Assembly: GCF_041248615.1 (NCBI RefSeq)
Contig: NZ_CP158426.1
Source: Escherichia coli
GTDB lineage: Bacteria > Pseudomonadota > Gammaproteobacteria > Enterobacterales > Enterobacteriaceae
Reading direction: 5' to 3' (one strand)
Length of the DNA stretch: 64,000 nt
The position numbers were made by a program, and so were the translations under genes. Below are positions 1,596 through 34,776 of the stretch, piece by piece. The stretch's first letter is position 1; every line of letters starts with the position of its first letter. The notes under the pieces were generated by a model. The model saw only the letters and a list, made by a program, of their open reading frames with translations, did no database searches and was not told where the DNA came from.

Positions 1596-3047
1596 TTAAA
1601 TGACGTACAGGTCGAGATACTCATTGACCGGCATCTGTTCCAGGCGAGCTCTGTCGAGAGAAACCTCCAGAATGCGCTGTTGCTGGCGAGTCGGGAACTG
1701 GCGCGCGAGATTGATTTTGAATTTATCGACCAGTTTCGGAATGCCATCCTGACGGCGGCGAGCATGACCAATGGGGTACTCCACCACCACTTCTTCAAAG
1801 CGCGTGCCGTCGGTGAACTCAAGGGTTATGGCATTGGCGATGGCACGTTTTTCCGGGTCGTGGTAGTCAGCGGTAAATGCCGGATCTTCAAAGCAATTGA
1901 TCTTCTCGCGCAGGGCGTCGATGCGTTTATCTTGCGCAACGTTGTCCTCGTAATCTGCCGCCGTTAAGCGTCCGAACAGCAGCGGGATCGCCACCATGTA
2001 CTGAATGCAGTGGTCGCGGTCAGCCGGGTTATTGAGCGGCCCTTTTTTGTCGATGATGCGAATACAGGCTTCGTGGGTGCGAATGGTCACTTTTTCGATA
2101 TCCGCCGCCGTTTTGCCTGCTGCCTGCATCTGTTCATAGAGCATCATCGCCGCTTCAACTGCCGTCTGGGAGTGGAACTCCGCCGGGAAGGAGATTTTGA
2201 ACAGCACATTTTCCATCACGTAAGAACCGTACGGACGCTGGAAGCGGAACGACTCACCTTTAAAGGAGACGTCGTAGAAGCCCCATACTGGCGCAGTCAG
2301 GGCTGACGGATAACCCATTTCGCCCGTTTTTGCCATCAATGCCAGACGTACCGCGCGGGAAGTGGCATCGCCCGCCGCCCAGGATTTACGCGTGCCGGTG
2401 TTCGGCGCATGGCGATAGGTGCGCAACGACTGACCGTCCACCCACGCCAGCGAAACGGCGTTGAGAATTTCCTCGCGGGTCAGGCCGAGCATTTCTGCAA
2501 CCACGGCGGTGGAAGCCACTTTCACTAACAGAACGTGGTCGAGGCCGACGCGGTTAAAGGAGTTTTCCAGCGCGATGCAGCCCTGAATTTCATGGGCTTT
2601 GATCATTCCGGTCAGCACCTGCTTCATGGTCAACGGCGCTTTGCCGCTAGCGACCGCGTTGCGCGAAAGCCAGTCCGCCGTTGCCAGAATGCCGCCGAGG
2701 TTGTCGGAAGGATGGCCCCACTCCGCCGCCAGCCAGGTATCGTTGAAATCGAGCCAACGGATCATCGCGCCGATGTTAAATGCCGCCTGGACGGGGTCGA
2801 GCTGGAACTGAGTTCCGGGGACGCGCACGCCGTTGGGTACGACGGTGCCAGGGACAATTGGCCCCAGCAGTTTTTTACAGGCCGGGTATTCGAGAGCTTC
2901 CAGACCGCAGCCGAGCGTGTCGAGCAGGCAGTAATGTGCGGTCTCGTAGGCCACTCTGGAGCTGATTTCGTAGTTCATCACGTAATCGACGATATCAACG
3001 ATTTCACGATCAAATTCCGGGCGGATGTTGTTGATTTGAGCTGACAT
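1596..3047 (-). CDS. prpD: 2-methylcitrate dehydratase
   Basis: 483-aa ORF, MmgE/PrpD-family sequence, position between prpC and prpE. Confidence 0.92.
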
Positions 3048-3080
3048 TGGGTACGTTTCCTTATTGTTATTCGTAGAGGT

Positions 3081-4250
3081 TTACTGGCGCTTATCCAGCG
3101 CGACAAACTGGCGGTCTTCCGGTCCAACATAATTGGCGGAAGGACGGATAATTTTGTTGTCCTGACGTTGTTCGATAATGTGCGCCGCCCAGCCGGTGAC
3201 GCGGGCGATAACAAACAGTGGGGTGAACATCTCGGTAGGAACGCCCATCATGTTGTAGGAAACAGCGGAGAACCAGTCGAGATTGGGGAACATCTTTTTG
3301 CTCTCCCACATCACTGTTTCCAGGCGATCGGCGATGTTGTACATCTTCAGCGAGCCGCCTTCCTGCGAGAGCTGCTTCGCCACGCGTTTGATCACCTGAT
3401 GACGCGGGTCGGCGATGGTATAAACCGGATGACCAAAACCAATGACCACTTCTTTGTTTTCCACCCGCTTGCGGATATCGGCTTCGGCTTCGTCCGGCGT
3501 TTCGTAGCGTTGCTGGATCTCCAGCGACACTTCATTCGCCCCGCCGTGCTTCGGCCCGCGCAGTGCACCAATCGCGCCAATAATCGCGGAATACATATCA
3601 GAGCCGGTGCCCGCAATCACCCGGCTGGTAAAGGTGGAGGCGTTAAACTCGTGTTCGGCGTACAGCACCAGCGAAATATGCATCGCCTTTTCCCAGCTTT
3701 GCGATGGCTTTTCGCCGTGCAGCAGATGCAGGAAGTGACCGCCGATGGAGTCGTCATCGGTTTCCGGCTGGATGCGTTCGCCGTTGTGGCTGTAGTGATA
3801 CCAGTAGAGAAGAATCGAGCTAAGTGACGCCAGCAGTTTGTCGGCAATATCCCGCGCACCAGATACAGTGTGCCCCTCTTTTTCCGGCAGTGTGCAGCCG
3901 AGCGCGGAAACGCCGGTGCGCATAACATCCATCGGGTGCGACGCCGCTGGTAAGGCTTCCAGCACAGTACGCACGTTAGCCGGTAAACCGCGCAGGGCTT
4001 TCAGTTTCGTTTTGTAGGCGGCGAGTTCGTCACGGGTCGGCAGTTTGCCGTGGATCAGCAGATGCGCCACTTCTTCAAATTCGCAATGTTCCGCCAGATC
4101 AAGAATGTCGTAGCCGCGGTAATGCAAATCATTGCCACTTTTACCCACGGTGCAGAGCGCCGTATTGCCCGCCGGAACGCCAGAAAGTGCCACCGATTTT
4201 TTCGGTTTAATGACATGGGTACTGTTTTGCAGGATCGTTGTGTCGCTCAT
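3081..4250 (-). CDS. prpC: 2-methylcitrate synthase
   Basis: 389-aa ORF, citrate-synthase family, between prpB and prpD. Confidence 0.92.
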
Positions 4251-8878: not shown

Positions 8879-9694
8879 CTAAAGAGTGTAGCGGATTTTA
8901 ACGTGCTTATTTACAGGATAATATCTGTCACCTAATTCCTGGACTCTATTAGATATCCATTGATTTAATCGCGCATCATCTCTGTATGTTTTTACGTCCA
9001 GAACAGAGAGCAATAACATCACCAGTGATTCAGGAAAAACAGGGTAGATATTTTTTAAGTGTAATAATAATCCATGCGCAAGCGCCTGCTTAATGGGTGC
9101 GTCGGTCTCCGGAATAGACGACATTTCGCGAAGCCATTTTTCCACATGCATACACTCTTTCCCTTTAGGGAAAAGTCTCAGCAAAGGCATATGGTGTTCA
9201 AGAAGAATACATTTGCAATCTGTTCGCACTGAATCGATAAACTGCACTAATTTCTTAAGCCCGGTAAAGCGTCCAGCCTGCACGTTTGCTTTAATATCAA
9301 GAAACGCATCGTCCTGGTCATATACCCAAACTGTCCCTTTTTGATTTTCAAGTATGCGAAAAACAAACTTAACCGGGTGATCAGGGTAATCCATCCAGTC
9401 ATAAAATCCAGGGAAATCATTAAACTGCACATTTATAGTGAGTGCGTTATCGTCTGACCACTCACAGTCTCGTACAGCAGCCATGAGATGAATGAGTTTG
9501 TCGTCATCGACTAAATCATCACGACAATCATAAGGATAATCATAATATTGTTTAATCAAAACCTTGAATATATCGACACAGGAGACCAGGGAGCTTTTGA
9601 TATCCTCTGGTAACTGATTGTTTTTTACTGTATTAAGTATGCTTTGTTGCGTATATGGCATCAAATTATTGTGCGGAGCTTTTAATGATATCAT
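8879..9694 (-). CDS. yahL: hypothetical protein
   Basis: 271-aa ORF in conserved position. Confidence 0.7.
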   Translation of the reverse strand: MISLKAPHNNLMPYTQQSILNTVKNNQLPEDIKSSLVSCVDIFKVLIKQYYDYPYDCRDDLVDDDKLIHLMAAVRDCEWSDDNALTINVQFNDFPGFYDWMDYPDHPVKFVFRILENQKGTVWVYDQDDAFLDIKANVQAGRFTGLKKLVQFIDSVRTDCKCILLEHHMPLLRLFPKGKECMHVEKWLREMSSIPETDAPIKQALAHGLLLHLKNIYPVFPESLVMLLLSVLDVKTYRDDARLNQWISNRVQELGDRYYPVNKHVKIRYTL

Positions 9695-9861
9695 CGCGAT
9701 CTCTCTTAAATAAAAATAAACGTCGCAGATAATAAAGCCCTGATTAAACCAGGCACTATCAGAAATCGCTCATAACTAACGTGTGAAGTATTGTGTACTG
9801 GAGGGAGTTAATTTAACAATTTGAATTTACGTTATAGGTTTTACTGCTACTTTGATATTAT

Positions 9862-9899
9862 TTCGCTCTCCTTAACTAAAAAGTTAAGTGGAGAGCGAA
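9862..9899. terminator. strong hairpin immediately downstream of yahK stop (candidate terminator or RNA stabiliser)
   Basis: TTCGCTCTCCTTAACT-AAAA-AGTTAAGTGGAGAGCGAA: 16 bp stem with 2-nt bulge; no clear U-tract on either strand. Confidence 0.35.
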
Positions 9900-9936
9900 G
9901 TTAATATGTTAAACCACAGGGTATTTATTAATTTTT

Positions 9937-10986
9937 TCAGTCTGTTAGTGTGCGATTATCGATAACAAAACGATATTTCACATCACCACGCAGCATTCGC
10001 TCATAGGCTTCATTAATTTGATCGGCCCGAATCATCTCTATATCAGCCACGATGCCATGTTCGGCGCAAAAATCGAGCATCTCCTGAGTTTCTGGAATGC
10101 CGCCAATCATAGAACCGGCTATCGCACGGCGTTTCATGATCAGGTTGAAAACTTCCGGCGATTTATGCGGTGTCGCAGGCGCACCAACCAGCGTCATGGT
10201 GCCATCACGCTTCAGCAAGGTGGTAAAATCGTCGAGATTATGTGGCGCAGCTACTGTATTCAAAATGAAATCGAAACTCTTGAGATGAGCCGCCATCTCA
10301 TCGGCATTGCGTGAGTTAACAACTTCATCGGCCCCCAGGGCTTTTGCCGCTTCGCGTTTTGACTCAGAAGTGGTAAATGCCACCACATGCGCCCCCATCG
10401 CGTGGGCCAGCTTAATCCCCATATGTCCCAGACCGCCGATGCCGACCACGCCCACTTTTTTACCCGGCCCGGCCTGCCAGTGACGTAGCGGCGAATACGT
10501 GGTGATCCCTGCACACAACAAAGGAGCCACCGCCGCCAGCTGCTCTTGCGGGTGACGAATACGCAGAACATATCGCTCATGAACGACGATCTGTTGTGAG
10601 TAGCCGCCCAGAGTATGGCCCGGTTCGTCCGGCGTCGGCGAGTTATAGGTGCCGGTCATGTGATCACAGTAGTTTTCCAGCCCGTCTTCACACTCTTCGC
10701 AATGTTTACAACTGTCGACAATGCAGCCGACACCGACCAGATCGCCCGGCGCATGTTTTTCTACCTGATCACCAACGGCTACCACACGCCCCACAATTTC
10801 ATGACCCGGCACGCAGGGGTAAACCGTCCCCGCCCACTCGGAACGGACCTGGTGGAGATCGGAATGGCAAACGCCACAGTAAGCGATTTCAATTTTGACA
10901 TCATGCGGTCCCGGTTCACGCCGGGTGATATCCATCGATTCAAGTGGTTGTTTAGCGGAATATGCACCAACAGCTTTGATCTTCAT
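9937..10986 (-). CDS. yahK: Zn-dependent NADPH aldehyde reductase / alcohol dehydrogenase (MDR family)
   Basis: 349-aa ORF; zinc ADH motif GHEIVGRV; Rossmann GVVGIGGLGH. Confidence 0.88.
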   Translation of the reverse strand: MKIKAVGAYSAKQPLESMDITRREPGPHDVKIEIAYCGVCHSDLHQVRSEWAGTVYPCVPGHEIVGRVVAVGDQVEKHAPGDLVGVGCIVDSCKHCEECEDGLENYCDHMTGTYNSPTPDEPGHTLGGYSQQIVVHERYVLRIRHPQEQLAAVAPLLCAGITTYSPLRHWQAGPGKKVGVVGIGGLGHMGIKLAHAMGAHVVAFTTSESKREAAKALGADEVVNSRNADEMAAHLKSFDFILNTVAAPHNLDDFTTLLKRDGTMTLVGAPATPHKSPEVFNLIMKRRAIAGSMIGGIPETQEMLDFCAEHGIVADIEMIRADQINEAYERMLRGDVKYRFVIDNRTLTD

Positions 10987-24215: not shown

Positions 24216-25148
24216 ATGAACTCAATTTTTACCGAAGAGAATCTGTTGGCATTTACTACCGCTGCGCGTTTTGGCAGTTTCAGTAAAGCCGCAGAAGAGT
24301 TGGGTTTAACCACTTCCGCCATTAGCTACACCATCAAGCGAATGGAAACAGGGCTGGATGTGGTGCTGTTCACTCGCAGTACCCGCAGCATTGAGTTAAC
24401 GGAGTCCGGGCGTTATTTTTTCCGCAAAGCTACCGACCTGCTGAATGATTTTCACGCCATCAAACGCAGCATCGATACTATTTCGCAGGGTATAGAAGCA
24501 CGGGTGCGCATTTGTATTAACCAACTGCTTTATACGCCCAAACACACCGCACGCTTATTACAGGTACTGAAAAAGCAGTTTCCAACCTGCCAGATTACCG
24601 TGACGACCGAAGTGTATAACGGCGTCTGGGATGCGATTATTAATAATCAGGCGAATATTGCTATCGGCGCGCCCGACACACTGCTGGACGGCGGCGGCAT
24701 TGATTACACGGAGATTGGCGCAATTCGCTGGGCTTTTGCTATCGCCCCGGATCACCCATTAGCCTTTGTGCCGGAACCCATCGCCGAAAGCCAACTGCGT
24801 CTCTATCCTAATATCATGGTGGAGGACACCGCGCATACGATTAATAAAAAAGTGGGCTGGTTGCTGCATGGGCAGGAGTCGATTCTGGTGCCAGATTTCA
24901 ACACCAAATGTCAGTGCCAGATTTTAGGTGAAGGGATTGGTTTTTTGCCGGATTACATGGTCCGTGAGGCGATGGCGCAATCCCTGCTGGTTACCCGACA
25001 AATCCATAATCCGCGCCAGGATTCACGCATGTTACTCGCAACTCAGCATTCTGCTACGGGTCAGGTGACGCAGTGGATTAAAAAACAATTTTCGCCAAAT
25101 GGCATATTAACGGGGATCTATCAGGATTTACTGCATCGGGAGAATTAA
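24216..25148 (+). CDS. yahB: LysR-family transcriptional regulator
   Basis: 310 aa; N-terminal HTH (FSKAAEELGLTTSAISYTIKRME). Confidence 0.85.
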   Translation: MNSIFTEENLLAFTTAARFGSFSKAAEELGLTTSAISYTIKRMETGLDVVLFTRSTRSIELTESGRYFFRKATDLLNDFHAIKRSIDTISQGIEARVRICINQLLYTPKHTARLLQVLKKQFPTCQITVTTEVYNGVWDAIINNQANIAIGAPDTLLDGGGIDYTEIGAIRWAFAIAPDHPLAFVPEPIAESQLRLYPNIMVEDTAHTINKKVGWLLHGQESILVPDFNTKCQCQILGEGIGFLPDYMVREAMAQSLLVTRQIHNPRQDSRMLLATQHSATGQVTQWIKKQFSPNGILTGIYQDLLHREN

Positions 25149-25189
25149 TCGCTGCCAACCTCCCGATGCGCTGTGAATAGCGGTTTACA

Positions 25190-26278
25190 TCAACCACCTG
25201 CTTTCATTACCCATTCAGAGATAAATTTATTACCCGGTACTGGCGGAGAGTACAAATAGCCCTGCAAAAAGTGAACGCCTTTGCCGATCATTAAATCCGC
25301 CTGCTCCTGGGTTTCTACCCCTTCCGCCACGATACTCAGACCAGGCTTACGCGCCAGTTCGACAATATTGTCCACAATATGACCGGATATTTCGTCCACG
25401 CTCGCCATTTGCACAAATGACTTATCGATCTTAATAAAATCGACCGGAAACGCCTGCAGATAACGATAGGTCGCATAACCCGTACCAAAGTCATCCAGCG
25501 CAAAGGTAATGTTGTGCTGATGAAGGCTGTCAAATATCGCTCTGGCTTCTGGCGTTACCGGAATAGGGTTACGTTCCGTTAGCTCGAGAACCAGTTTGAT
25601 TTTATCGTTACCTAATTTCTTAACCAGGTTCAGACACTCTTTTTCAAATCCCGCAGCCAAAAAACAACCCGCCGAGACGTTGATGCCAATATGGAAATTG
25701 TCCGGCAGCAAATGTTTTACCGGCATCAGAATATCCGCAGTCTGTTTCATCAACTGGCGAGTCATTATGACGATAAGACCAGATGACTCCGCCAGAGGAA
25801 TAAACTGATCCGGTGGGATAATTCCCGTTTGTGGATGTTCCCAGCGGACAAGCACCTCACAGCCCGTCAGTACCCCAGTCTGCGCGCAGAAAACCGGTTG
25901 GATCCACGGTTTAAATTCATGGTTTTCCAACGCCAGACTGATGGCTTCAGGCGTGACGATATGGTGATAGTGATTATCATTAATATATTTGTGACTATTA
26001 TTACCCGTGGCGGATATGATCTCCGGATTGTACTGAAAGAAAATATCCCGCCAGAAAGTAATATCGCTCTGAATCCCCAGTTTCTCAAAGAGCTGTTTCT
26101 TTTGATGTGAAATGGTCTTTGCACTGCGATTTCTGTACTGTGATATTTCTGTTACAGACATTCCCTGCATCAGCAGCTTGAGTAGCAGTCGTTCTTTCTC
26201 GGATACGCTACCAGGCAATGACAAATGAACCGTTGTACCGAACTCTTGCAGAAAAACACGAAAATCACATGAATTCAT
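25190..26278 (-). CDS. pdeL: c-di-GMP phosphodiesterase with LuxR-type HTH and EAL domain
   Basis: ORF 25190-26284; start MNSCDF at 26278 gives 362 aa; EAL-domain motifs (ELTER, DDFGTGY). Confidence 0.88.
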   Translation of the reverse strand: MNSCDFRVFLQEFGTTVHLSLPGSVSEKERLLLKLLMQGMSVTEISQYRNRSAKTISHQKKQLFEKLGIQSDITFWRDIFFQYNPEIISATGNNSHKYINDNHYHHIVTPEAISLALENHEFKPWIQPVFCAQTGVLTGCEVLVRWEHPQTGIIPPDQFIPLAESSGLIVIMTRQLMKQTADILMPVKHLLPDNFHIGINVSAGCFLAAGFEKECLNLVKKLGNDKIKLVLELTERNPIPVTPEARAIFDSLHQHNITFALDDFGTGYATYRYLQAFPVDFIKIDKSFVQMASVDEISGHIVDNIVELARKPGLSIVAEGVETQEQADLMIGKGVHFLQGYLYSPPVPGNKFISEWVMKAGG

Positions 26279-27112
26279 GAACACACCTTTTATCTTTTAT
26301 CGCTGTTCAGTATGAGTGATTACCTGTGGATTCCTGAGCACACATAAGGGGTAACCATAAACATCAGCGATGCCATACGCATAACATCCCACATCACTAT
26401 CAAAAAGATTATCTTTACCTCTGATGCTCGCTCAAAAACAGTTACGCTAAATACCTTAAAAAGGTAATCACAAGTCAAACTCAGGAGATAATCACGCAAG
26501 AATGCAATATTAAAATTCAGATACTCATTTTTGGTAATAAAGAAGTAGTTGGACTATTTCAATATTTATAATTTCCCACTACGTATTGACGCCCATTCAT
26601 GAGTAAAGGCGCATTATATGAATTTAACAATCCAGATCAACTGAAAATACCTCAACCTCATAAACACATAGCGTCAACATTCAATGACATAATGAGTAAA
26701 GATGTTGGTTATGCATACACGTCATTACTCTATGCCTATCCCTTAACAACCTGCTTTTTAAGGCTGAATCCATTCAGCAATAGATAACCAACATTATAAC
26801 AATGACAATAAAAACAATATTTAAAACAATCAATAAAATATCAGACACAGACAATTAAACCTTAAACAACAAACAGTTACATTGATTTTAGTTGATTTGC
26901 GCTACGCGTTTCCCATGAATAAAGCGTCATTTCAAATTAGCACCAATATTTACATTAAATAAGACTAAGCTTATTGAACATTCACAACAGTCCAAGCGTA
27001 GGTTTTGGGCTTCAATAGTTCTTTTCTTTTTTATTATCTGTTGCCTGGCAATCATCAATCGATACTAAGGGCTTAACTGTACACAGATATAACGTATCAA
27101 GAGGTAAGAGAA

Positions 27113-27146
27113 ACCGCGCCATATGCAGACATGGCGCGGTTTTATG
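27113..27146. terminator. hairpin downstream of betT (candidate bidirectional terminator)
   Basis: ACCGCGCCAT-ATGCAGAC-ATGGCGCGGT, perfect 10-bp stem, T-run on plus strand and UUCUCUU on minus strand. Confidence 0.5.
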
Positions 27147-27155
27147 CAATAACAA

Positions 27156-29189
27156 TCACGCGTCCGGGAACATCACGCTATGGCCCGGCGCTTCACGATG
27201 GAGATGGATAAAGTTAAGGTGCCGCTCGTACTGATCGAGAATATCGGTGATCACCTGCTCTTTGCTGTAGTCCATCAGGTCGTTGCCCTGGCTGCCTTCT
27301 AACAGGAAAGTTTCCAGCCGGTAGTAGGTCGATTTACCGCTACGTGCGCGGTAGGTAAAGCCCGGCACCGAATATTGCTGCGGCCAAATCTGATAGACAA
27401 AGTTTTGCTCTTCGCCCATATGCACCAACAAATCCAGATGCCCCAACTGTTGTCCCTCTTCCGGCGGCAGGCTTTTTAGCTCCACGTACGCGCCGCGCAA
27501 CCGCAGCTCCTGCGCCACTTCTTCCATTGCCGGGTAACAGACCGTCTCCATCATCTGTTTAGTGTAACGCGTGCCCGGATAATTCATCAGGCGCGAGAGA
27601 CGTTTTTTCCAGCTCAGGCGATCCTGAAGCCCCAGCGGTCGCGGCGCGGTATCACGGTTGGCACTTTCACGGCGGTAATCTTCTACCTTCAGAGATTTAT
27701 ACAACCCCGCCATCACGAAGAAAATCACAAAGCTGAACGGCAGCCCCATGATTACCGTGGTGTTTTGCAGCGCGGATATCCCGTTGGTCATCAGCATGCC
27801 GAGCGTCAGCAGGCCAATCGCCACCGACCAGAAGACGCGCAGCCAGCCGGGGGCGTCGCTGTTGATATCTTTAAGCTGCGAGGTGAAATTCCCCAGCACC
27901 AGCGCCCCGGAGTCCGCCGAGGTCACATAAAACAGCAGGCCAGTAATGGTGGCGACGGAGGCGCTAAAGGTAAACGCCGGATACTGCGCCAGCAGGCTGT
28001 AGAAGCCGCGCTCCGGATGGACCATCGCTTCCTCGGCAAATGCCGCGCCGCCGTGGATGATTTCATACAGCGCGCTATTGCCGAACACCGAGAGCCATAA
28101 CAGCGTGAAGGTAAACGGAATAATCAACGTGCCCAGCACGAACTGGCGAATGGTACGCCCACGCGAGATACGCGCCAGGAACAGGCCGACAAACGGCGAC
28201 CATGCCACCCACCATGCCCAGAAGAAGAGCGTCCAGTTATTCATCCACTCAACCGGACGGTCGAAGGCAAAACTGTTGAGCGTCATGCCCATAAAGCGAT
28301 TCACATAGTCGCCAACGTTCAGCACCAGCGCATTAAGCAGGAACGAGGTGTCGCCCATAAACAGCACGAACAGGATCAACCCCAGCGCCAGCGCAACGTT
28401 GAGTTCCGATAACACACGAATGCCCTTATCGACACCGGAGGTGACAGAGATCGTGGCGATGATCACCGACAAGGCGATCAGTGCCGCTTTCGCCGCCATT
28501 GAATCGGGAATATCAAACAGTACGCTCAAGCCATAGTTAAGCTGCACCACACCGATACCGAGCGTAGTGGCAATACCGAAGATGGTGCCGATTACCGCTG
28601 CAATATCCACTGAATGACCAATCGGCCCGTTAATCCGTTTACCGAAGATCGGGTACAGCGCCGAGCGGATGGTGAGCGGCAAATTATAACGATAGCTAAA
28701 GTATCCGAGCGCCATGCCCATCAGCGCATACATCGACCAGCCGGTTAAGCCGTAGTGAAACAGCGTCCAGACCATCGCCTGACGCGCGGCCTCAATCGTC
28801 TGACCCGCGCCTTCCGGCGGCTGCATATACTGCGTTACCGGTTCGGCTACGGAGAAGAACATCAGGTCGATACCGATCCCGGCAGCAAACAGCATCGCCG
28901 CCCAGCTCAGCAGGCTGAATTCCGGTTTGGATTGTTCTGGCCCGAGCTTCACCGAACCAAAACGCGAACAAGCGATGCAGACCACAAAGACAATATAGAG
29001 CGTTGCCGCCAGCAGATAGTACCAACCGAAGGTTTTAGAAACCCAGTCCAGCGTGCGGCCAATCCACAGGGCCGAGAAGTCGCGAAACAGGATCGTTGTC
29101 AGGGAAAACAACAAAATCAGTCCGGCGGAAGTGTAAAACACCACCGGATTGATTTTGTCCTTTTCCCTGCTGTGTGAAAGGTCTGTCAT
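27156..29189 (-). CDS. betT: choline transporter (BCCT family)
   Basis: 677-aa polytopic ORF; divergent from betIBA. Confidence 0.9.
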   Translation of the reverse strand: MTDLSHSREKDKINPVVFYTSAGLILLFSLTTILFRDFSALWIGRTLDWVSKTFGWYYLLAATLYIVFVVCIACSRFGSVKLGPEQSKPEFSLLSWAAMLFAAGIGIDLMFFSVAEPVTQYMQPPEGAGQTIEAARQAMVWTLFHYGLTGWSMYALMGMALGYFSYRYNLPLTIRSALYPIFGKRINGPIGHSVDIAAVIGTIFGIATTLGIGVVQLNYGLSVLFDIPDSMAAKAALIALSVIIATISVTSGVDKGIRVLSELNVALALGLILFVLFMGDTSFLLNALVLNVGDYVNRFMGMTLNSFAFDRPVEWMNNWTLFFWAWWVAWSPFVGLFLARISRGRTIRQFVLGTLIIPFTFTLLWLSVFGNSALYEIIHGGAAFAEEAMVHPERGFYSLLAQYPAFTFSASVATITGLLFYVTSADSGALVLGNFTSQLKDINSDAPGWLRVFWSVAIGLLTLGMLMTNGISALQNTTVIMGLPFSFVIFFVMAGLYKSLKVEDYRRESANRDTAPRPLGLQDRLSWKKRLSRLMNYPGTRYTKQMMETVCYPAMEEVAQELRLRGAYVELKSLPPEEGQQLGHLDLLVHMGEEQNFVYQIWPQQYSVPGFTYRARSGKSTYYRLETFLLEGSQGNDLMDYSKEQVITDILDQYERHLNFIHLHREAPGHSVMFPDA

Positions 29190-29253
29190 CCAGTATCCCC
29201 ACTGTTATTGTTACCATTTAAAATCAAATTCGTAACAATTAAGACACATTTTA

Positions 29254-29273
29254 TATTGAACGTCCAATCAATA
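29254..29273. promoter_or_regulatory. candidate BetI (TetR-family) operator in betT-betI divergent promoter region
   Basis: TATTGA-N8-TCAATA inverted repeat about 45 bp upstream of betI start. Confidence 0.3.
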
Positions 29274-29317
29274 ACCGCTTTAATAGATAAACAACGCTGA
29301 TGAATGGAGTGGCGAAA

Positions 29318-29905
29318 ATGCCCAAATTGGGGATGCAGTCGATCCGGCGCAGACAACTGATCGACGCCACGCTGGAAGCAATAAATGAAGTGGGCATGCA
29401 CGATGCAACGATCGCGCAGATCGCCCGCCGTGCAGGCGTTTCTACGGGGATCATCAGCCACTATTTCAGGGACAAAAATGGTCTGCTGGAAGCAACCATG
29501 CGCGATATCACCAGTCAGCTGCGTGACGCGGTTTTGAATCGATTACATGCACTTCCGCAGGGCAGTGCAGAGCAGCGATTACAGGCGATTGTTGACGGGA
29601 ATTTCGATGAAACGCAGGTCAGTAATGCTGCGATGAAAGCCTGGTTGGCGTTTTGGGCCAGCAGTATGCATCAGCCGATGCTTTACCGTTTGCAGCAGGT
29701 GAGCAGCCGCCGCTTGTTGTCGAATCTGGTGAGCGAATTTCACCGCGAGTTACCGCGCCAACAGGCACAGGAAGCGGGCTACGGCCTTGCCGCGCTGATT
29801 GACGGATTATGGCTGCGCGCGGCACTGAGCGGCAAACCGCTGGATAAACCTCTCGCACACTCGCTGACCCGTCACTTTATTACTCAGCATTTACCCACCG
29901 ATTAA
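29318..29905 (+). CDS. betI: TetR-family repressor of choline-glycine betaine genes
   Basis: ORF 29300-29905; start MPKLGMQ at 29318 gives 195 aa; TetR HTH. Confidence 0.88.
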
Positions 29906-29918
29906 CCGAGGAGACGTG

Positions 29919-31391
29919 ATGTCCCGAATGGCAGAACAGCAGCTTTATATACATGGTGGTTATACCTCCGCCACCAGCGGTCGCACCTTCGAGACCATTA
30001 ACCCGGCCAACGGTAACGTGCTGGCGACCGTGCAGGCCGCCGGGCGTGAGGATGTCGATCGCGCCGTGAAGAGTGCCCAACAGGGGCAAAAAATCTGGGC
30101 GGCGATGACCGCTATGGAACGCTCGCGTATTCTGCGTCGGGCCGTTGATATTCTGCGTGAACGCAATAACGAACTCGCAAAACTGGAAACCCTCGACACC
30201 GGAAAAGCGTATTCGGAAACCTCAACCGTCGATATCGTTACCGGCGCGGACGTGCTCGAGTACTACGCCGGGCTGATCCCGTCGCTGGAAGGCAGCCAGA
30301 TCCCATTGCGTGAGACGTCATTTGTCTATACCCGCCGCGAACCGCTGGGCGTAGTGGCAGGGATTGGCGCATGGAACTACCCGATCCAGATTGCCCTGTG
30401 GAAATCCGCCCCGGCGCTGGCGGCAGGCAACGCGATGATTTTCAAACCGAGCGAAGTCACCCCGCTTACCGCGTTAAAGCTGGCCGAAATTTACAGCGAA
30501 GCGGGCCTGCCGGACGGCGTATTTAACGTGCTGCCGGGCGTAGGTGCGGAAACCGGGCAGTATCTGACCGAGCATCCGGGCATTGCCAAAGTGTCATTTA
30601 CCGGCGGTGTCGCCAGCGGCAAAAAAGTGATGGCTAACTCGGCGGCTTCCTCCCTGAAAGAAGTGACCATGGAGCTGGGCGGTAAATCACCGCTGATCGT
30701 TTTCGACGATGCGGATCTCGATCTCGCCGCTGATATCGCCATGATGGCGAACTTCTTCAGCTCCGGTCAGGTGTGTACCAACGGCACCCGCGTGTTTATT
30801 CCGGCGAAATGCAAAGCCGCATTTGAACAAAAGATTCTGGCGCGCGTTGAGCGCATTCGCGCGGGCGACGTTTTCGATCCGCAAACTAACTTCGGCCCGC
30901 TGGTCAGCTTCCCGCATCGCGATAACGTGCTGCGTTACATCGCCAAAGGCAAAGAGGAAGGCGCGCGCGTACTGTGCGGCGGCGATGTATTGAAAGGCGA
31001 TGGCTTCGATAACGGCGCATGGGTTGCACCGACCGTGTTCACCGATTGCCGCGACGAAATGACCATCGTGCGCGAAGAGATCTTCGGTCCGGTGATGTCG
31101 CTTCTCACTTATGAATCTGAGGACGAAGTGATTCGCCGCGCCAATGATACCGACTACGGCCTGGCGGCGGGCATCGTGACGGCGGACCTGAACCGCGCGC
31201 ATCGCGTCATTCATCAGCTGGAAGCGGGTATTTGCTGGATCAACACCTGGGGCGAATCCCCGGCAGAGATGCCCGTTGGCGGCTACAAACACTCCGGCAT
31301 TGGTCGCGAGAACGGCGTGATGACGCTCCAGAGTTACACCCAGGTGAAGTCCATCCAGGTTGAGATGGCTAAATTCCAGTCCATATTCTAA
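29919..31391 (+). CDS. betB: betaine aldehyde dehydrogenase
   Basis: 490 aa; aldehyde dehydrogenase motifs (catalytic Cys in [20 protein letters not shown]). Confidence 0.92.
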
Positions 31392-31404: not shown

Positions 31405-33075
31405 TTGCAATTTGACTACATCATTATTGGTGCCGGCTCAGCCGGCAACGTTCTCGCTACCCGTCTGACTGAAGATCCGAATACCTCCGTGCTGCTGCTT
31501 GAAGCGGGCGGCCCGGACTATCGCTTTGACTTCCGCACCCAGATGCCCGCAGCGCTGGCGTTCCCGCTACAGGGTAAACGCTACAACTGGGCCTATGAAA
31601 CGGAACCTGAACCGTTTATGAATAACCGCCGCATGGAGTGCGGACGCGGTAAAGGTCTGGGTGGATCGTCGCTGATCAACGGCATGTGTTACATCCGTGG
31701 CAATGCGCTGGATCTCGATAACTGGGCGAAAGAACCCGGCCTGGAACACTGGAGCTACCTCGATTGCCTGCCCTACTATCGGAAGGCCGAGACGCGCGAT
31801 ATTGGTGAAAACGACTACCACGGCGGCGACGGCCCGGTGAGCGTCACCACCTCCAAACCCGGCGTCAATCCGCTGTTTGAGGCGATGATTGAAGCGGGCG
31901 TGCAGGCAGGCTACCCGCGCACGGACGATCTCAACGGCTATCAGCAGGAAGGTTTTGGCCCGATGGATCGCACCGTCACGCCGCAGGGTCGTCGCGCCAG
32001 TACCGCGCGCGGTTATCTCGATCAGGCCAAATCGCGCCCTAACCTGACCATTCGTACTCACGCCATGACCGATCATATCATTTTTGACGGCAAACGCGCG
32101 GTGGGCGTCGAGTGGCTGGAAGGCGACAGCACCATTCCAACCCGCGCGACAGCGAATAAAGAGGTGCTGTTATGTGCAGGTGCGATCGCCTCTCCGCAGA
32201 TCCTGCAACGTTCCGGCGTGGGTAGCGCTGAACTGCTGGCGGAGTTTGATATTCCGCTGGTGCATGATTTACCCGGCGTCGGCGAAAATCTTCAGGATCA
32301 CCTGGAGATGTACCTGCAATATGAGTGCAAAGAACCGGTTTCCCTCTACCCTGCCCTGCAGTGGTGGAATCAGCCGAAAATCGGTGCGGAGTGGCTGTTT
32401 GGCGGCACCGGCGTTGGTGCCAGCAACCACTTTGAAGCAGGCGGATTTATTCGCAGCCGTGAGGAATTTGCGTGGCCGAATATTCAGTACCATTTCCTGC
32501 CAGTGGCGATTAACTATAACGGCTCGAACGCAGTGAAAGAGCACGGCTTCCAGTGCCACGTCGGATCGATGCGCTCGCCAAGCCGTGGGCATGTGCGGAT
32601 TAAATCCCGCGACCCGCACCAGCATCCAGCGATTCTGTTTAACTACATGTCGCACGAGCAGGACTGGCAGGAGTTCCGCGACGCAATTCGCATCACCCGG
32701 GAGATCATGCATCAACCGGCGCTGGATCAGTATCGTGGCCGCGAAATCAGCCCCGGTGTCGAATGCCAGACGGATGAGCAGCTCGATGAGTTCGTGCGTA
32801 ACCACGCCGAAACCGCCTTCCACCCGTGCGGTACCTGCAAAATGGGTTATGACGAGATGGCAGTGGTTGACGCCGAAGGCCGCGTACACGGGCTGGAAGG
32901 CCTGCGCGTGGTAGATGCGTCAATTATGCCGCAGATTATCACCGGCAATTTGAACGCCACGACTATTATGATTGGCGAGAAAATGGCGGATATGATTCGC
33001 GGGAAGGATGCGTTGCCGAGGAGCACGGCGGGATATTATGTGGCAAATGGGATGCCGGTGAGAGCGAAAAAATGA
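31405..33075 (+). CDS. betA: choline dehydrogenase (GMC oxidoreductase)
   Basis: TTG start at 31405 with AGGAGG SD 6 nt upstream; N-terminal FAD fold [11 protein letters not shown]; 556 aa. Confidence 0.9.
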
Positions 33076-33287
33076 GTCGTGATGTGAACTGACTCAGGAA
33101 CCTATCAGATTGAGAGTTACCGTTCTACTATGAGGACCGAATCCTTATATAAAACACTGAGGTAACTCTCATGCTTCATATCCAGTATTCATGATGCTGG
33201 CTTTTTGCTGATATTTACCCTGAACATTCCTGATACAGACTATTAATACAATCTTATCTGCGACAGATTTTATTTTCTGGATATATT

Positions 33288-33838
33288 ATGAGTGAACAAA
33301 TCAAACAGGATATCGATCTGATTGAGATTTTATTTTATCTGAAGAAAAAGATTCGTGTTATCCTTTTTATTATAGCTATCTGTATGGCAATGGTGCTGTT
33401 GTTTCTGTATATCAATAAAGATAATATAAAAGTGACTTACAGTCTAAAAATAAACCAAACAACACCAGGCATACTTGTTAGCTGTGATAGCAATAATAAC
33501 TTTGCCTGTCAGACCACAATGACTGAAGATGTTATTCAGCGAATTACTACATTTTTTCACACCAGCCCAGATGTCAAGAACAGAGAAATAAAACTGGAAT
33601 GGTCAGGAGATAAGAGAGATTTACCAACTGCTGTACAAAAATGATATACCTGACCAGGAACTGGTCATTGTATCCGAACGGTGATGGCTGTGTCACTATA
33701 AGCTCACCAGAAATAAAAAATAAATATCCTGCTGCCATTTGCCTGGCTCTGGGATTTTTTCTAAGCATTGTGATTTCTGTAATGTTTTGCCTTGTCAAAA
33801 AAATGGTAGATGAATACCAACAAAACTCTGGGCAGTAA
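33288..33838 (+). pseudogene. membrane-protein gene region at the ykgH position, split across reading frames (possibly decayed)
   Basis: ORFs 33288-33644, 33641-33838 and 33810-34007 in frames 0/2/0, each with hydrophobic stretches; junction ATGA at 33641. Confidence 0.3.
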
Positions 33839-34080
33839 TAAACAGCATTCTGATAGAGAGTGCCTGTATATAGCTGAAGTGACAATGACTGGGAAGGGAA
33901 CCCGTTTTCAGGAATGGATGCCTGTCTTTTTCACTGTAAATATCCTGGCATTACTAATGCCAGGATATTTAAAGAAGAGGAGCATAACCATGACAGAACG
34001 GGGTTAAGTCAGGTTGTCCTTAACGCTATTCACAACCTCGTATGCCGACTTCAGGTTTATGTCCAGACTTCATATCTCTC

Positions 34081-34776
34081 TCAGCAATCCTCAATAATCA
34101 GATACACCGCTTTCACCGGACCATGAACCCCAACGACTTTGATAAGCTCAATATCCGCCGTTGAACTAGGGCCGCTAATGATGTTAATGCAGGACGGCAT
34201 TCGTTCACCGGCCTGCGCTTTCTGATGCAATTTTTCTGCGAGTTGCGCTACACGCGGCAGGATTGTGCTTTTACGCAGGATAAAAAGAGAAGATTCCGGG
34301 AGCAGGCTCAATGAACGCCCGCGCCCGGCGGCGGAAAAAAGAACCACTCCTCCCGATTCGGTTAAACCATATTCAGCATACACTACGCCAACTTTAGCCT
34401 GCTCTGCTTGTGATATGTTCTCAATACCTTTCGCCGGATCCCAAACAACGGCATTGCATTCCTGCTGCAAACGTTCGCTAATCCCCAATTCCTCCAGCCT
34501 CGTGTCATCGCTAATCACGACCGACTGATCTCCCAGCTCTTTACACAGTCGTATTGCAGCTTCTGCCGCCTTCGCCTCGCTGGTCAGTTCACAGCGCGTC
34601 AACATAACATCGCTGGCAAACTGGATAAACGCGTCACAGCGCTGCTGTTGGTTAAGTGCGGTAAGCCGCTCGTTAGCATAGTTGTTAAGCGGCGCATCTT
34701 CTGCTTGCGGTTCAAGTCGCAGCGGGCGACCCAGTGCCTGAGCAACGTTATTCAAAAATTCGCTCCGATTATCCAT
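34081..34776 (-). CDS. ykgG: LutC-like lactate-utilisation protein
   Basis: ORF 34081-34923; start MDNRSEF at 34776 gives 231 aa and an 8-nt overlap with ykgF. Confidence 0.85.
   Translation of the reverse strand: MDNRSEFLNNVAQALGRPLRLEPQAEDAPLNNYANERLTALNQQQRCDAFIQFASDVMLTRCELTSEAKAAEAAIRLCKELGDQSVVISDDTRLEELGISERLQQECNAVVWDPAKGIENISQAEQAKVGVVYAEYGLTESGGVVLFSAAGRGRSLSLLPESSLFILRKSTILPRVAQLAEKLHQKAQAGERMPSCINIISGPSSTADIELIKVVGVHGPVKAVYLIIEDC

Follow-up and report, generated by a model that had tools for sequence, protein, structure and literature searches.

The window, i.e., the whole 64-kb stretch of Escherichia coli DNA that was analysed, carries betT (27156-29189) and pdeL (25190-26278) on the minus strand, separated by an intergenic gap of 877 bp (26279-27155). 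The GC content of the gap is 34.7%, compared with 55.7% for betT, 45.5% for pdeL and 49.6% for the whole window, and only 0.6% of the 877-nt windows within the 64 kb are equally AT-rich. An earlier sequence-only reading had described a long AT-rich gap between these two genes, which was confirmed except for its limits; the reading had implied a pdeL start at GTG 26284, whereas the RefSeq start is the ATG at 26278. The gap sequence was 100% identical to that of E. coli strain A10, where it is also flanked by betT and pdeL, and it showed 93% identity over 877 bp to the betT-pdeL (yahA) spacer of K-12 MG1655 (331497-332370), which has the same flanking genes in the same orientation. The window spacer is 3 nt longer than the MG1655 spacer, and the two sequences diverge by 12-16% across 26700-27000, in the betT-proximal half. 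Published K-12 elements were placed on the window through this pairwise alignment (A1). Conservation was assessed in a footprint alignment of nine sequences, comprising seven E. coli haplotypes and two divergent Escherichia (E1V33 and SCPM-O-B-8794). The spacers of the latter two are only 71-75% identical to that of the window, and their PdeL proteins are 97-99% identical. An Rfam 15 scan of both strands of 25000-29500, with c-di-GMP riboswitches and known sRNAs among its families, found nothing at E ≤ 1.

Downstream of betT, a perfect 12-bp inverted repeat (arms 27111-27122 and 27131-27142, 8 nt apart) begins 14 nt past the stop codon and is predicted to form the intrinsic terminator of betT (27111-27142, minus strand). 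The RNA of the betT strand folded into a 14-bp stem with -23.9 kcal/mol (z = -4.6), and none of 200 shuffled sequences was as stable; the plus-strand RNA folded with -22.7 kcal/mol (z = -5.1). This hairpin had already been noticed, albeit at 27113-27146 with 10 pairs instead of 27111-27142 with 12-14 pairs. Past the hairpin, the minus strand reads UUUCUCUU and the plus strand UUUUAU. On the minus strand, UUU closes the stem and CUCUU comes next; a consensus terminator scan, which asks for 5 or more T within 8 nt, missed the hairpin because of the interrupted T-run. The K-12 hairpin differs from that of the window by one substitution in the 3' arm (G to T, A1 column 41). The 42 nt at 27114-27155 are the sole part of the gap common to genomes with ehaA between betT and pdeL (described below), and some match was found in 5183 of 5426 genomes.

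Cra, PdeL (at two sites, CIB and CDB) and H-NS act on the K-12 spacer (Reinders et al., bioRxiv 10.1101/2021.10.01.462762), and the corresponding sequences were present in the window, in agreement with the earlier suggestion of multiple regulator sites. The proposed motif search for Cra and PdeL sites indeed found the Cra palindrome and an exact CIB palindrome in the gap. The predicted Cra-independent PdeL box (CIB), AATAAG-N6-CTTATT at 26958-26975, is the sole zero-mismatch match in the 64 kb and falls inside the K-12 CIB EMSA fragment (oligos 4991/4997, A1 columns 168-235). Its palindrome arms are those of K-12, and one spacer base differs. The predicted Cra (FruR) box, GCTGAATGGATTCAG at 26764-26778, is an imperfect palindrome of the TGAA-N6-TTCA type. 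The K-12 version contained in the Cra/CDB EMSA oligo 4695 has the same sequence and was bound by purified Cra with a Kd of 49 nM (bioRxiv 10.1101/2021.10.01.462762). In the entire 64 kb there is a single CTGAAT-NN-ATTCAG palindrome, where 0.13 would be expected. The putative Cra-dependent PdeL site (CDB) was placed at 26750-26763 from the position of oligo 4695 and alignment A1. This block reads CCTTAAAAAGCAGG in the window as opposed to TCTTAATGAGTGGG in K-12, with differences at 5 of 14 positions, and the half-site abutting the Cra box is CTTAAA in the window and starts with CTTAAT in K-12. The E. coli haplotypes agree only in CTTAA, and the divergent Escherichia do not preserve the block. 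Since the CDB differs from K-12 and is not conserved in these lineages, PdeL binding at this site may differ from that in K-12. An 11-nt perfect inverted repeat around the Cra box (26702-26712 and 26784-26794) was also considered and rejected, because K-12 has it only in imperfect form and the divergent lineages lack it; the chance expectation for such pairs was estimated as about 0.1.

The ORF at 26599-26787 had been taken for the only one in the gap, but we found 12 ORFs of at least 20 aa lying wholly or partly within it, including a counterpart of K-12 yahV (b4730). Codon-for-codon alignment with b4730 placed the yahV homologue at 26774-26848 on the minus strand; the ORF list gives it from an upstream TTG (26774-26854). 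The window copy has a GTG start and 24 codons and encodes a hydrophobic peptide, MSDILLIVLNIVFIVIVIMLVIYC. K-12 yahV, whose product is a 24-aa predicted single-pass membrane protein, shares the locus, frame, GTG start, length and stop codon and is just as uniformly hydrophobic, with 6 of 24 residues different (75% amino-acid identity). The stop codon, TGA, falls inside the Cra box, and the gene lies between the two PdeL sites, a location that is unmentioned in the pdeL preprint (bioRxiv 10.1101/2021.10.01.462762). Mutating the PdeL or Cra sites also changes yahV, and vice versa. The gap had been regarded as non-coding. This view holds for the 62-aa ORF at 26599-26787, which looks spurious, but fails for yahV, which is intact in the window and whose K-12 product was seen by SPA-tag immunoblot (PMC6001520); yahV, however, is not conserved beyond E. 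coli. Its start is lost in Escherichia sp. E1V33, which also has a premature stop, and its N-terminus is frameshifted in SCPM-O-B-8794.

Identity in the yahV segment among E. coli records ranged from 80 to 100%. Eight haplotypes showed 12 non-synonymous to 1 synonymous variable sites, and no purifying selection at the protein level was seen among them. The exact YahV sequence of the window had no entry in the protein collection, and Pfam and NCBIfam searches with both YahV variants and the 62-aa ORF gave nothing but a sub-threshold hit to DUF6978 (E 0.069). PGAP leaves yahV unannotated in this lineage, including the identical strain A10. The literature lists yahV among the accessory genes of phylogroups A/B1/C (PMC9976479). 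In our sample, every copy of the window type had the ORF open, and this haplogroup was found in about 1700 genomes in which automated annotation omits the gene, so the phylogroup restriction is probably an annotation artefact. Judged from these comparisons, yahV is a real ORF that behaves like a young lineage-restricted microprotein within regulatory DNA. Just upstream of it, the block TAAGGTTTAATT (26853-26864, minus strand) was invariant in all nine aligned sequences and holds AAGG, a candidate ribosome-binding site for yahV. The block is kept even in both lineages with a broken yahV, and translation of yahV alone therefore fails to explain its conservation.

A motif scan and the published yahA promoter placed the predicted sigma-70 promoter of pdeL at 26613-26640 on the minus strand, with the -35 element TTGATC (26640-26635), a 16-nt spacer and the -10 element TATAAT (26618-26613), matching the consensus at 10 of 12 positions. 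The same TTGATC-16-TATAAT was reported as an H-NS-marked RpoD promoter for yahA (= pdeL) in the betT>yahA spacer (Shimada 2014, PMC3946193). The -35/-10 promoter and the Cra box of K-12 are identical to those of the window, and the leader is nearly identical. The promoter also lies inside the K-12 RNA polymerase recruitment fragment (oligos 4695-4283, A1 columns 377-555). From the position of the -10 element, transcription of pdeL would start near 26606; a literature text search, conducted without Reinders 2015/16, Rangarajan & Schnetz 2018 and Yilmaz 2020, returned no mapped pdeL start. A second promoter-like site (TTGAGC-16-GATAAT, 26435-26408) was discarded because its -10 element is not kept in the divergent lineages; promoter-like sites in general were not above the shuffle expectation (3 vs 4.1). 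The Cra box is centred about 165 bp upstream of the predicted start, which is far for a simple activator and counts against the activation scheme set out below.

The promoter position implies a 5' leader of pdeL that is probably about 328 nt long (26279-26606, minus strand), with AAGG (26286-26289) at its end, 7 nt ahead of the pdeL start codon (ATG, 26278). The earlier suggestion of an untranslated RNA survives only in the form of this probable leader, as there was neither an Rfam match nor covariation support for anything else. Of 3779 matching E. coli records, 3772 carried the leader with an identity of 95% or more. A paralogue search with it found at most two copies per genome, usually one. 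The matches in plasmids all came from Escherichia and consisted of K-12 laboratory plasmids, one 68.5-kb plasmid of a human isolate and two records of several megabases that are filed as plasmids.

The conservation analysis that had been proposed as a check showed that the CIB, the Cra box and the core promoter were invariant across the seven E. coli haplotypes and the two divergent Escherichia. The CIB lies in a 22-nt invariant island (26957-26978) and the promoter in one of 45 nt (26605-26649), and the Cra box core was unchanged in 9 of 9 aligned sequences. Between the Cra box and the promoter, two further invariant blocks, CATCTTTACTCATTATGT and GAATGTTGACGC, were found at 26671-26704; they are not kept in the ehaA-type spacer of O157. 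Beyond the published elements, invariant blocks were also found at 26553-26566 and 26442-26454 and in the last 100 nt of the leader. This last part (about 100 nt, 26279-26377) was 90-92% identical to the divergent Escherichia, compared with 56-70% for the spacer upstream of it. Such conserved blocks outside the known sites, chiefly the last 100 nt of the leader, are targets for dissection.

The betT-pdeL gap is thus the already-studied control region of pdeL, and most of what it holds is ordinary and known. We are confident that the interval is the E. coli betT-pdeL spacer acting as an H-NS-silenced, Cra- and PdeL-activated control region of pdeL. The window has the K-12 elements at the equivalent positions, and in the footprint alignment most of them form islands of unchanged sequence. 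De-repression of pdeL in an hns mutant has been reported for K-12 (bioRxiv 10.1101/2021.10.01.462762), as has an H-NS mark in the spacer (PMC3946193). By analogy, we infer that the elements work in the same way in this lineage, that transcription starts at the predicted position and that the leader is transcribed. Along the minus strand, transcription of betT would end at the hairpin at 27111-27142; the CIB, presumably a low-affinity site in an AT-rich stretch, would come next, followed by yahV, the Cra box with the CDB, the promoter about 130 bp past the Cra box and the leader, which would run to the pdeL start at 26278. According to the model for K-12, the AT-rich DNA is coated by H-NS, so that the pdeL promoter stays off, and Cra at its box recruits PdeL. 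At low c-di-GMP, PdeL tetramers then bridge the CDB and the CIB, displace H-NS and recruit RNA polymerase, and the outcome is a bistable switch.

A different arrangement was found in 26% of E. coli genomes, including O157:H7, in which ehaA lies between betT and pdeL; the arrangement of K-12 and the window, with no ehaA between them, accounts for about 69%. In O157:H7, ehaA is 3984 nt long and pdeL follows 141 nt further downstream. The O157:H7 betT-ehaA spacer (573 bp) carries the 42-nt betT terminator and a Cra box (169-183 of that spacer), both identical to those of the window, and a promoter TTGATT-16-TATAAT followed by GCGC, of which the -35 element is one base off the TTGATC of the window and the -10 element and the spacing are the same. 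The distance from the Cra box to the promoter is about 130 bp, as in the window. The O157:H7 spacer also carries a PdeL-type palindrome, AATAAGACGATTCTTAT (207-223 of that spacer), which is located 24 nt downstream of the Cra box, as opposed to about 190 nt upstream in the window. Neither yahV nor a leader of the K-12 type is present, and the remaining spacer shows only about 59% identity to that of the window. Retention of the Cra box and promoter amid such divergence independently favours the reading of these elements as control sites. We consider it plausible, although we would not yet favour it, that E. coli has two long-standing alleles downstream of betT, which exclude each other but have one Cra/PdeL-controlled promoter module in common. 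In the 69% allele, the module would drive pdeL through the conserved leader of about 330 nt and would have gained yahV; in the 26% allele, it would precede the autotransporter adhesin gene ehaA. If the module works alike in both alleles, ehaA-type strains would couple an adhesin/biofilm factor to the Cra- and c-di-GMP-responsive PdeL switch, and pdeL autoregulation would be wired differently in EHEC than in K-12. Our literature search found no paper linking ehaA and pdeL regulation, and the promoter module upstream of ehaA in O157-type strains offers the testable hypothesis that the adhesin is controlled by Cra and PdeL.

The same comparison raises the question of whether gene loss left the spacer mainly as a scar, with ehaA of an ancestral betT-ehaA-pdeL order replaced by a non-functional AT-rich filler in K-12-type genomes. 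The occurrence of ehaA between betT and pdeL in O157:H7, in E. whittamii and in a MAG contig, together with a decayed ehaA remnant in E. albertii, is consistent with such a loss, as are the Cra box and promoter common to both arrangements and the divergence of the betT-proximal half between the window and K-12. However, searches for an origin of the K-12-type leader and upstream segment in ehaA or its flanks (word-7 blastn, tblastx) aligned only the segment from the Cra box to the promoter, at 59%, and the leader and the betT-proximal segment had no similarity to these sequences. Furthermore, the footprints are strong and the leader is better conserved than the genes on either side, both of which point to function, and the K-12-type spacer is itself old, being present, with 25-29% divergence, in two other Escherichia lineages. 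A scar is therefore unlikely as the main explanation.

We also weighed whether the pdeL leader (about 328 nt) acts in cis as a structured RNA, riboswitch-like or protein-binding, to control the translation or stability of pdeL. This would explain why the leader is the best-conserved part of the spacer, both in almost all E. coli and, for its last 100 nt, in the divergent Escherichia. RNA folding predicted a long imperfect hairpin of about 110 nt (26330-26439, minus strand) in three diverged lineages, with -35.8 kcal/mol and z = -2.6 in the window, -45.3 kcal/mol and z = -5.6 in E1V33, and -36.1 kcal/mol and z = -1.9 in SCPM-O-B-8794. In addition, CAUACU could form a small stem with GGUGUG in the ribosome-binding region. 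However, the fold of the whole leader was not significant (z = -1.45, with 9 of 100 shuffles folding as well), and a consensus fold of five sequences showed no compensatory changes in the long hairpin, with an unfavourable covariation term of +1.24. The Rfam scan, which covered c-di-GMP riboswitches, matched nothing here, and the conservation could equally reflect sites at the DNA level, e.g., for H-NS nucleation downstream of the promoter. We consider a structured regulatory leader quite improbable and treat the predicted hairpin as a lead only.

The spacer might instead encode a free-standing sRNA or a cis-antisense RNA regulating yahV or pdeL, one candidate being a plus-strand transcript that ends at the bidirectional hairpin at 27111-27146. 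Transcription of the K-12 spacer against the direction of yahA has been seen in vitro, with a preference for the sigma-S holoenzyme (PMC3141248). The plus-strand fold of the hairpin with its UUUUAU tail and a weak plus-strand promoter-like site at 26802-26830 are compatible with such a transcript. However, this site matches the consensus at only 9 of 12 positions and is weaker in K-12 (alignment A1), and sites of this kind were no more numerous than in shuffled sequence. AT-rich, H-NS-bound DNA is also known for spurious initiation in vitro, which counts against an antisense RNA, as does the empty Rfam result even at E ≤ 1. A regulatory RNA of this type appears very unlikely.

The 62-aa ORF (26599-26787, plus strand) is antisense to the pdeL promoter, the Cra box and the 3' end of yahV; it exists as earlier read from the sequence, lacking a Shine-Dalgarno motif. 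It was open in 15 of 15 full-length E. coli copies sampled, the sole other copy being cut by IS1. In many GenBank submissions, all of E. coli, it is entered as a "hypothetical protein", and the antisense transcription in vitro would suit a gene transcribed divergently from pdeL. However, its substitutions (18 non-synonymous to 7 synonymous, where about 80% non-synonymous is expected) are neutral-like, and its invariant N-terminal part coincides with the footprint of the pdeL promoter. In E1V33 the start is ACG and several internal stops occur, SCPM-O-B-8794 has internal stops too, no Pfam or NCBIfam family matched, and the ORF is absent from the current RefSeq annotation at every locus examined. 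The ORF is most likely not a gene, and we regard an overlooked protein gene here as extremely improbable.

Read as the silenced and activated control region of pdeL, the spacer owes its length to the elements it holds, namely the terminator, yahV, the promoter with its long leader and two distant activator sites. The E. coli loci bgl and proU are silenced by H-NS through upstream and downstream silencing regions. The pdeL locus would resemble them in the H-NS mark and the hns de-repression reported for K-12 and in combining an AT-rich region over the promoter with a long transcribed leader, the latter being a predicted one in pdeL.

With the ATG of pdeL (yahA, minus strand) placed at 26278 by RefSeq, the gap between its upstream side and the downstream side of betT (27156-29189, minus strand) spans 26279-27155. 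This 877-bp interval has a GC content of 34.7% versus 49.6% for the whole window, and only 0.6% of windows of the same length have GC this low, confirming the long AT-rich intergenic region described by the sequence-only reading. Other AT-rich stretches (GC below 38% in 877-nt windows) lie at about 9035-10114, 32932-34157 and 56899-58622, and the most AT-rich 877-nt window of the 64 kb (32.7% GC) starts at 57357. The interval is 100% identical to that of E. coli strain A10, and of the 5426 complete E. coli genomes 5183 carry a full or partial match to it. This is a known region: its K-12 counterpart (331497-332370, 874 bp) shows 93% identity, with a divergence of 12 to 16% in the CIB/yahV/CDB segment and 0 to 5% in most of the flanking genes. 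Patches of betI (29550-29950) and betT (28300-28450) are 8 to 12% diverged from K-12 in genes that otherwise differ by 0 to 3%, which suggests a recombination mosaic around the bet locus.

We mapped published K-12 reagents onto the window through the K-12 alignment columns. [quoted passage not shown] The oligo for Cra and the abutting Cra-dependent PdeL site (CDB) covers columns 377-406. The Cra box GCTGAATGGATTCAG (26778-26764) is identical to that of K-12, whereas the CDB is unlike K-12 at 5 of 14 positions. The pdeL promoter TTGATC-16-TATAAT lies at 26640-26613 on the minus strand, and the K-12 fragment showing RNA-polymerase recruitment ends just beyond it, at column 555 (26601). An identical promoter was given for yahA by Shimada et al. 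(2014), who flagged the betT>yahA spacer as H-NS-bound (PMC3946193). The promoter position leads us to infer that transcription begins near 26606, giving a leader of about 328 nt. The proposal of several regulator sites thus holds, as the Cra box, CIB palindrome and promoter match published K-12 elements. Reinders et al. (bioRxiv 10.1101/2021.10.01.462762) reported a KD of 49 nM for Cra, recruitment of PdeL by Cra to the CDB (76 nM), weak PdeL binding to the CIB (573 nM) and silencing of the promoter by H-NS. They proposed that at low c-di-GMP a PdeL tetramer bridges CDB and CIB and counters H-NS, resulting in bistable expression. IS1 or IS3 was observed inside the spacer, at differing positions, in three sampled strains (L007, NZ_CM173951.1; L063, NZ_CP133913.1; L064, NZ_CM149861.1), which fits an insertion hot spot in AT-rich, H-NS-bound DNA and could change pdeL expression. 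A perfect 11-nt inverted repeat, ATGTTGGTTAT / ATAACCAACAT (26702-26712 and 26784-26794), flanks a stretch holding the yahV 3' end and the Cra box; K-12 has an imperfect version, and the divergent lineages lack it.

A PdeL scan of species-representative genomes yielded two such lineages, Escherichia sp. E1V33 (PdeL 99% and spacer 75% identical) and SCPM-O-B-8794 (97% and 71%). Islands constant across these two and seven E. coli haplotypes coincide with the CIB (26957-26978), the Cra box (26762-26778) and the promoter, where a 45-nt block (26605-26649) spans the -35, the -10 and the start region; the experimentally defined sites, except the CDB, therefore emerge from comparison alone. Further invariant islands are TAAGGTTTAATT (26853-26864), two unexplained blocks (26687-26704 and 26671-26682), two short leader blocks (26553-26566 and 26442-26454) and nearly all of the final 100 nt ahead of pdeL. 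Of 3779 E. coli records, 3772 carry a leader with 95% or higher identity, and the 26279-26377 segment of the leader is 90 to 92% identical to Escherichia lineages with only 56 to 70% identity in the upstream spacer.

The gap is not purely non-coding, as had been supposed. The K-12 annotation has a 24-aa gene, yahV (b4730), in the spacer on the strand shared with betT and pdeL, and VanOrsdel et al. (2018; PMC6001520) detected its product in MG1655 on immunoblots after SPA-tagging of the chromosomal gene. Alignment to K-12 placed an intact yahV at 26848-26774 on the minus strand, with a GTG start, 24 codons and a TGA stop within the Cra box. The encoded peptide, MSDILLIVLNIVFIVIVIMLVIYC, carries six substitutions in 24 residues relative to K-12, and this exact variant was not found in a collection of 15 billion proteins. 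PGAP treats this one ORF in three ways by haplotype: it is mostly "protein YahV" in the 1655 K-12-like genomes (segment 80 to 90% identical to the window), "hypothetical protein" in 353 intermediate ones (90 to 95%) and unannotated in the approximately 1722 of the window's haplogroup (at least 95%), for which reason pangenome analyses count yahV among the accessory genes. Its published status as accessory to phylogroups A/B1/C (PMC9976479) probably reflects this missing label rather than a missing ORF; we regard the annotation gap as a modest extra result. Among eight haplotypes, from 15 E. coli copies with a readable yahV frame, variable sites were 12 non-synonymous and 1 synonymous (chance expectation about 76% non-synonymous), and hydrophobicity was retained but sequence was not. 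Since about 4% of single-base changes create a stop, selection for an open frame is not demonstrable in this small sample. In E1V33 the start is GTA with a stop at codon 9, and in SCPM-O-B-8794 a 1-nt deletion frameshifts the N-terminus, a shorter frame reaching the same TGA. Our reading is that yahV is a young microprotein confined to E. coli.

An untranslated RNA had also been suggested. Rfam gave no family match in the gap, and the whole leader folded no better than shuffles (z -1.45). An imperfect hairpin of ~110 nt (26330-26439, minus strand) was predicted, with z of -2.6 in the window, -5.6 in E1V33 and -1.9 in SCPM-O-B-8794; the alignment fold contained no compensatory changes in it, and its overall covariation term was unfavourable. 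This putative structured element is a lead. Antisense transcription is possible because the K-12 spacer is transcribed both ways in vitro, the forward direction preferring sigma-70 and the reverse sigma-S holoenzyme (Maciag et al. 2011, PMC3141248); a promoter scan and the K-12 alignment located no convincing conserved plus-strand promoter in the spacer. The 62-aa ORF (26599-26787, plus strand), antisense to the pdeL start region, promoter, Cra box and yahV 3' end, is present, although the gap holds other ORFs as well. It is uninterrupted in 15 sampled full-length E. coli copies, its invariant N-terminus falls on the promoter footprint, and its sole database entries are E. coli "hypothetical protein" calls from older submissions. 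We consider it spurious, given neutral-like substitutions (18 non-synonymous, 7 synonymous), disruption in both divergent lineages and no Pfam/NCBIfam match.

The hairpin after betT is present, although its position and stem differ slightly from those first read (27113-27146, 10 bp): a perfect inverted repeat with 12-bp arms (27111-27122 / 27131-27142, minus strand) is predicted to form a 14-bp stem in betT-strand RNA (-23.9 kcal/mol, z -4.6). About 1400 genomes share with the spacer solely the 42-nt betT terminator segment, typified by the O157:H7 order betT - 573 bp - ehaA (autotransporter adhesin gene, 3984 nt) - 141 bp - pdeL (L058, NZ_CP038380.1 4327500-4336100). That O157:H7 strain also has, downstream of pdeL, copies of yahC and yahB that its annotation marks as pseudogenes with frameshifts (L058 1205-2735). 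The ehaA-type (1402 of 5426 E. coli genomes) and K-12/window-type (3726) spacers make up nearly all terminator-carrying genomes. E1V33 and SCPM-O-B-8794 (L014 and L015, about 3000-3200) have a K-12-type spacer without bet genes, adjoined by ykgEFG. The E1V33 junction apparently keeps the 3' arm of the hairpin plus the next TTTCT..ACCTCT, so the terminator may mark a deletion or insertion boundary. In E. whittamii and one MAG contig ehaA lies directly upstream of pdeL, and in E. albertii the same promoter precedes a decayed remnant of ehaA. In the literature searched, we found no paper connecting ehaA with pdeL regulation.

Comparison of the two spacer types showed that the ehaA-type carries a Cra box identical to that of the window. 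A PdeL-type palindrome (AATAAGACGATTCTTAT) follows 24 nt further downstream, and at about 130 bp from the box lies the same promoter (TTGATT-16-TATAAT, then GCGC). Outside these elements, however, identity to the window's spacer is only 59%. Being common to ehaA-type and K-12-type spacers, the Cra/PdeL promoter module predates either arrangement, and it is positioned to drive ehaA in a quarter of E. coli. This shared module is a further modest result.
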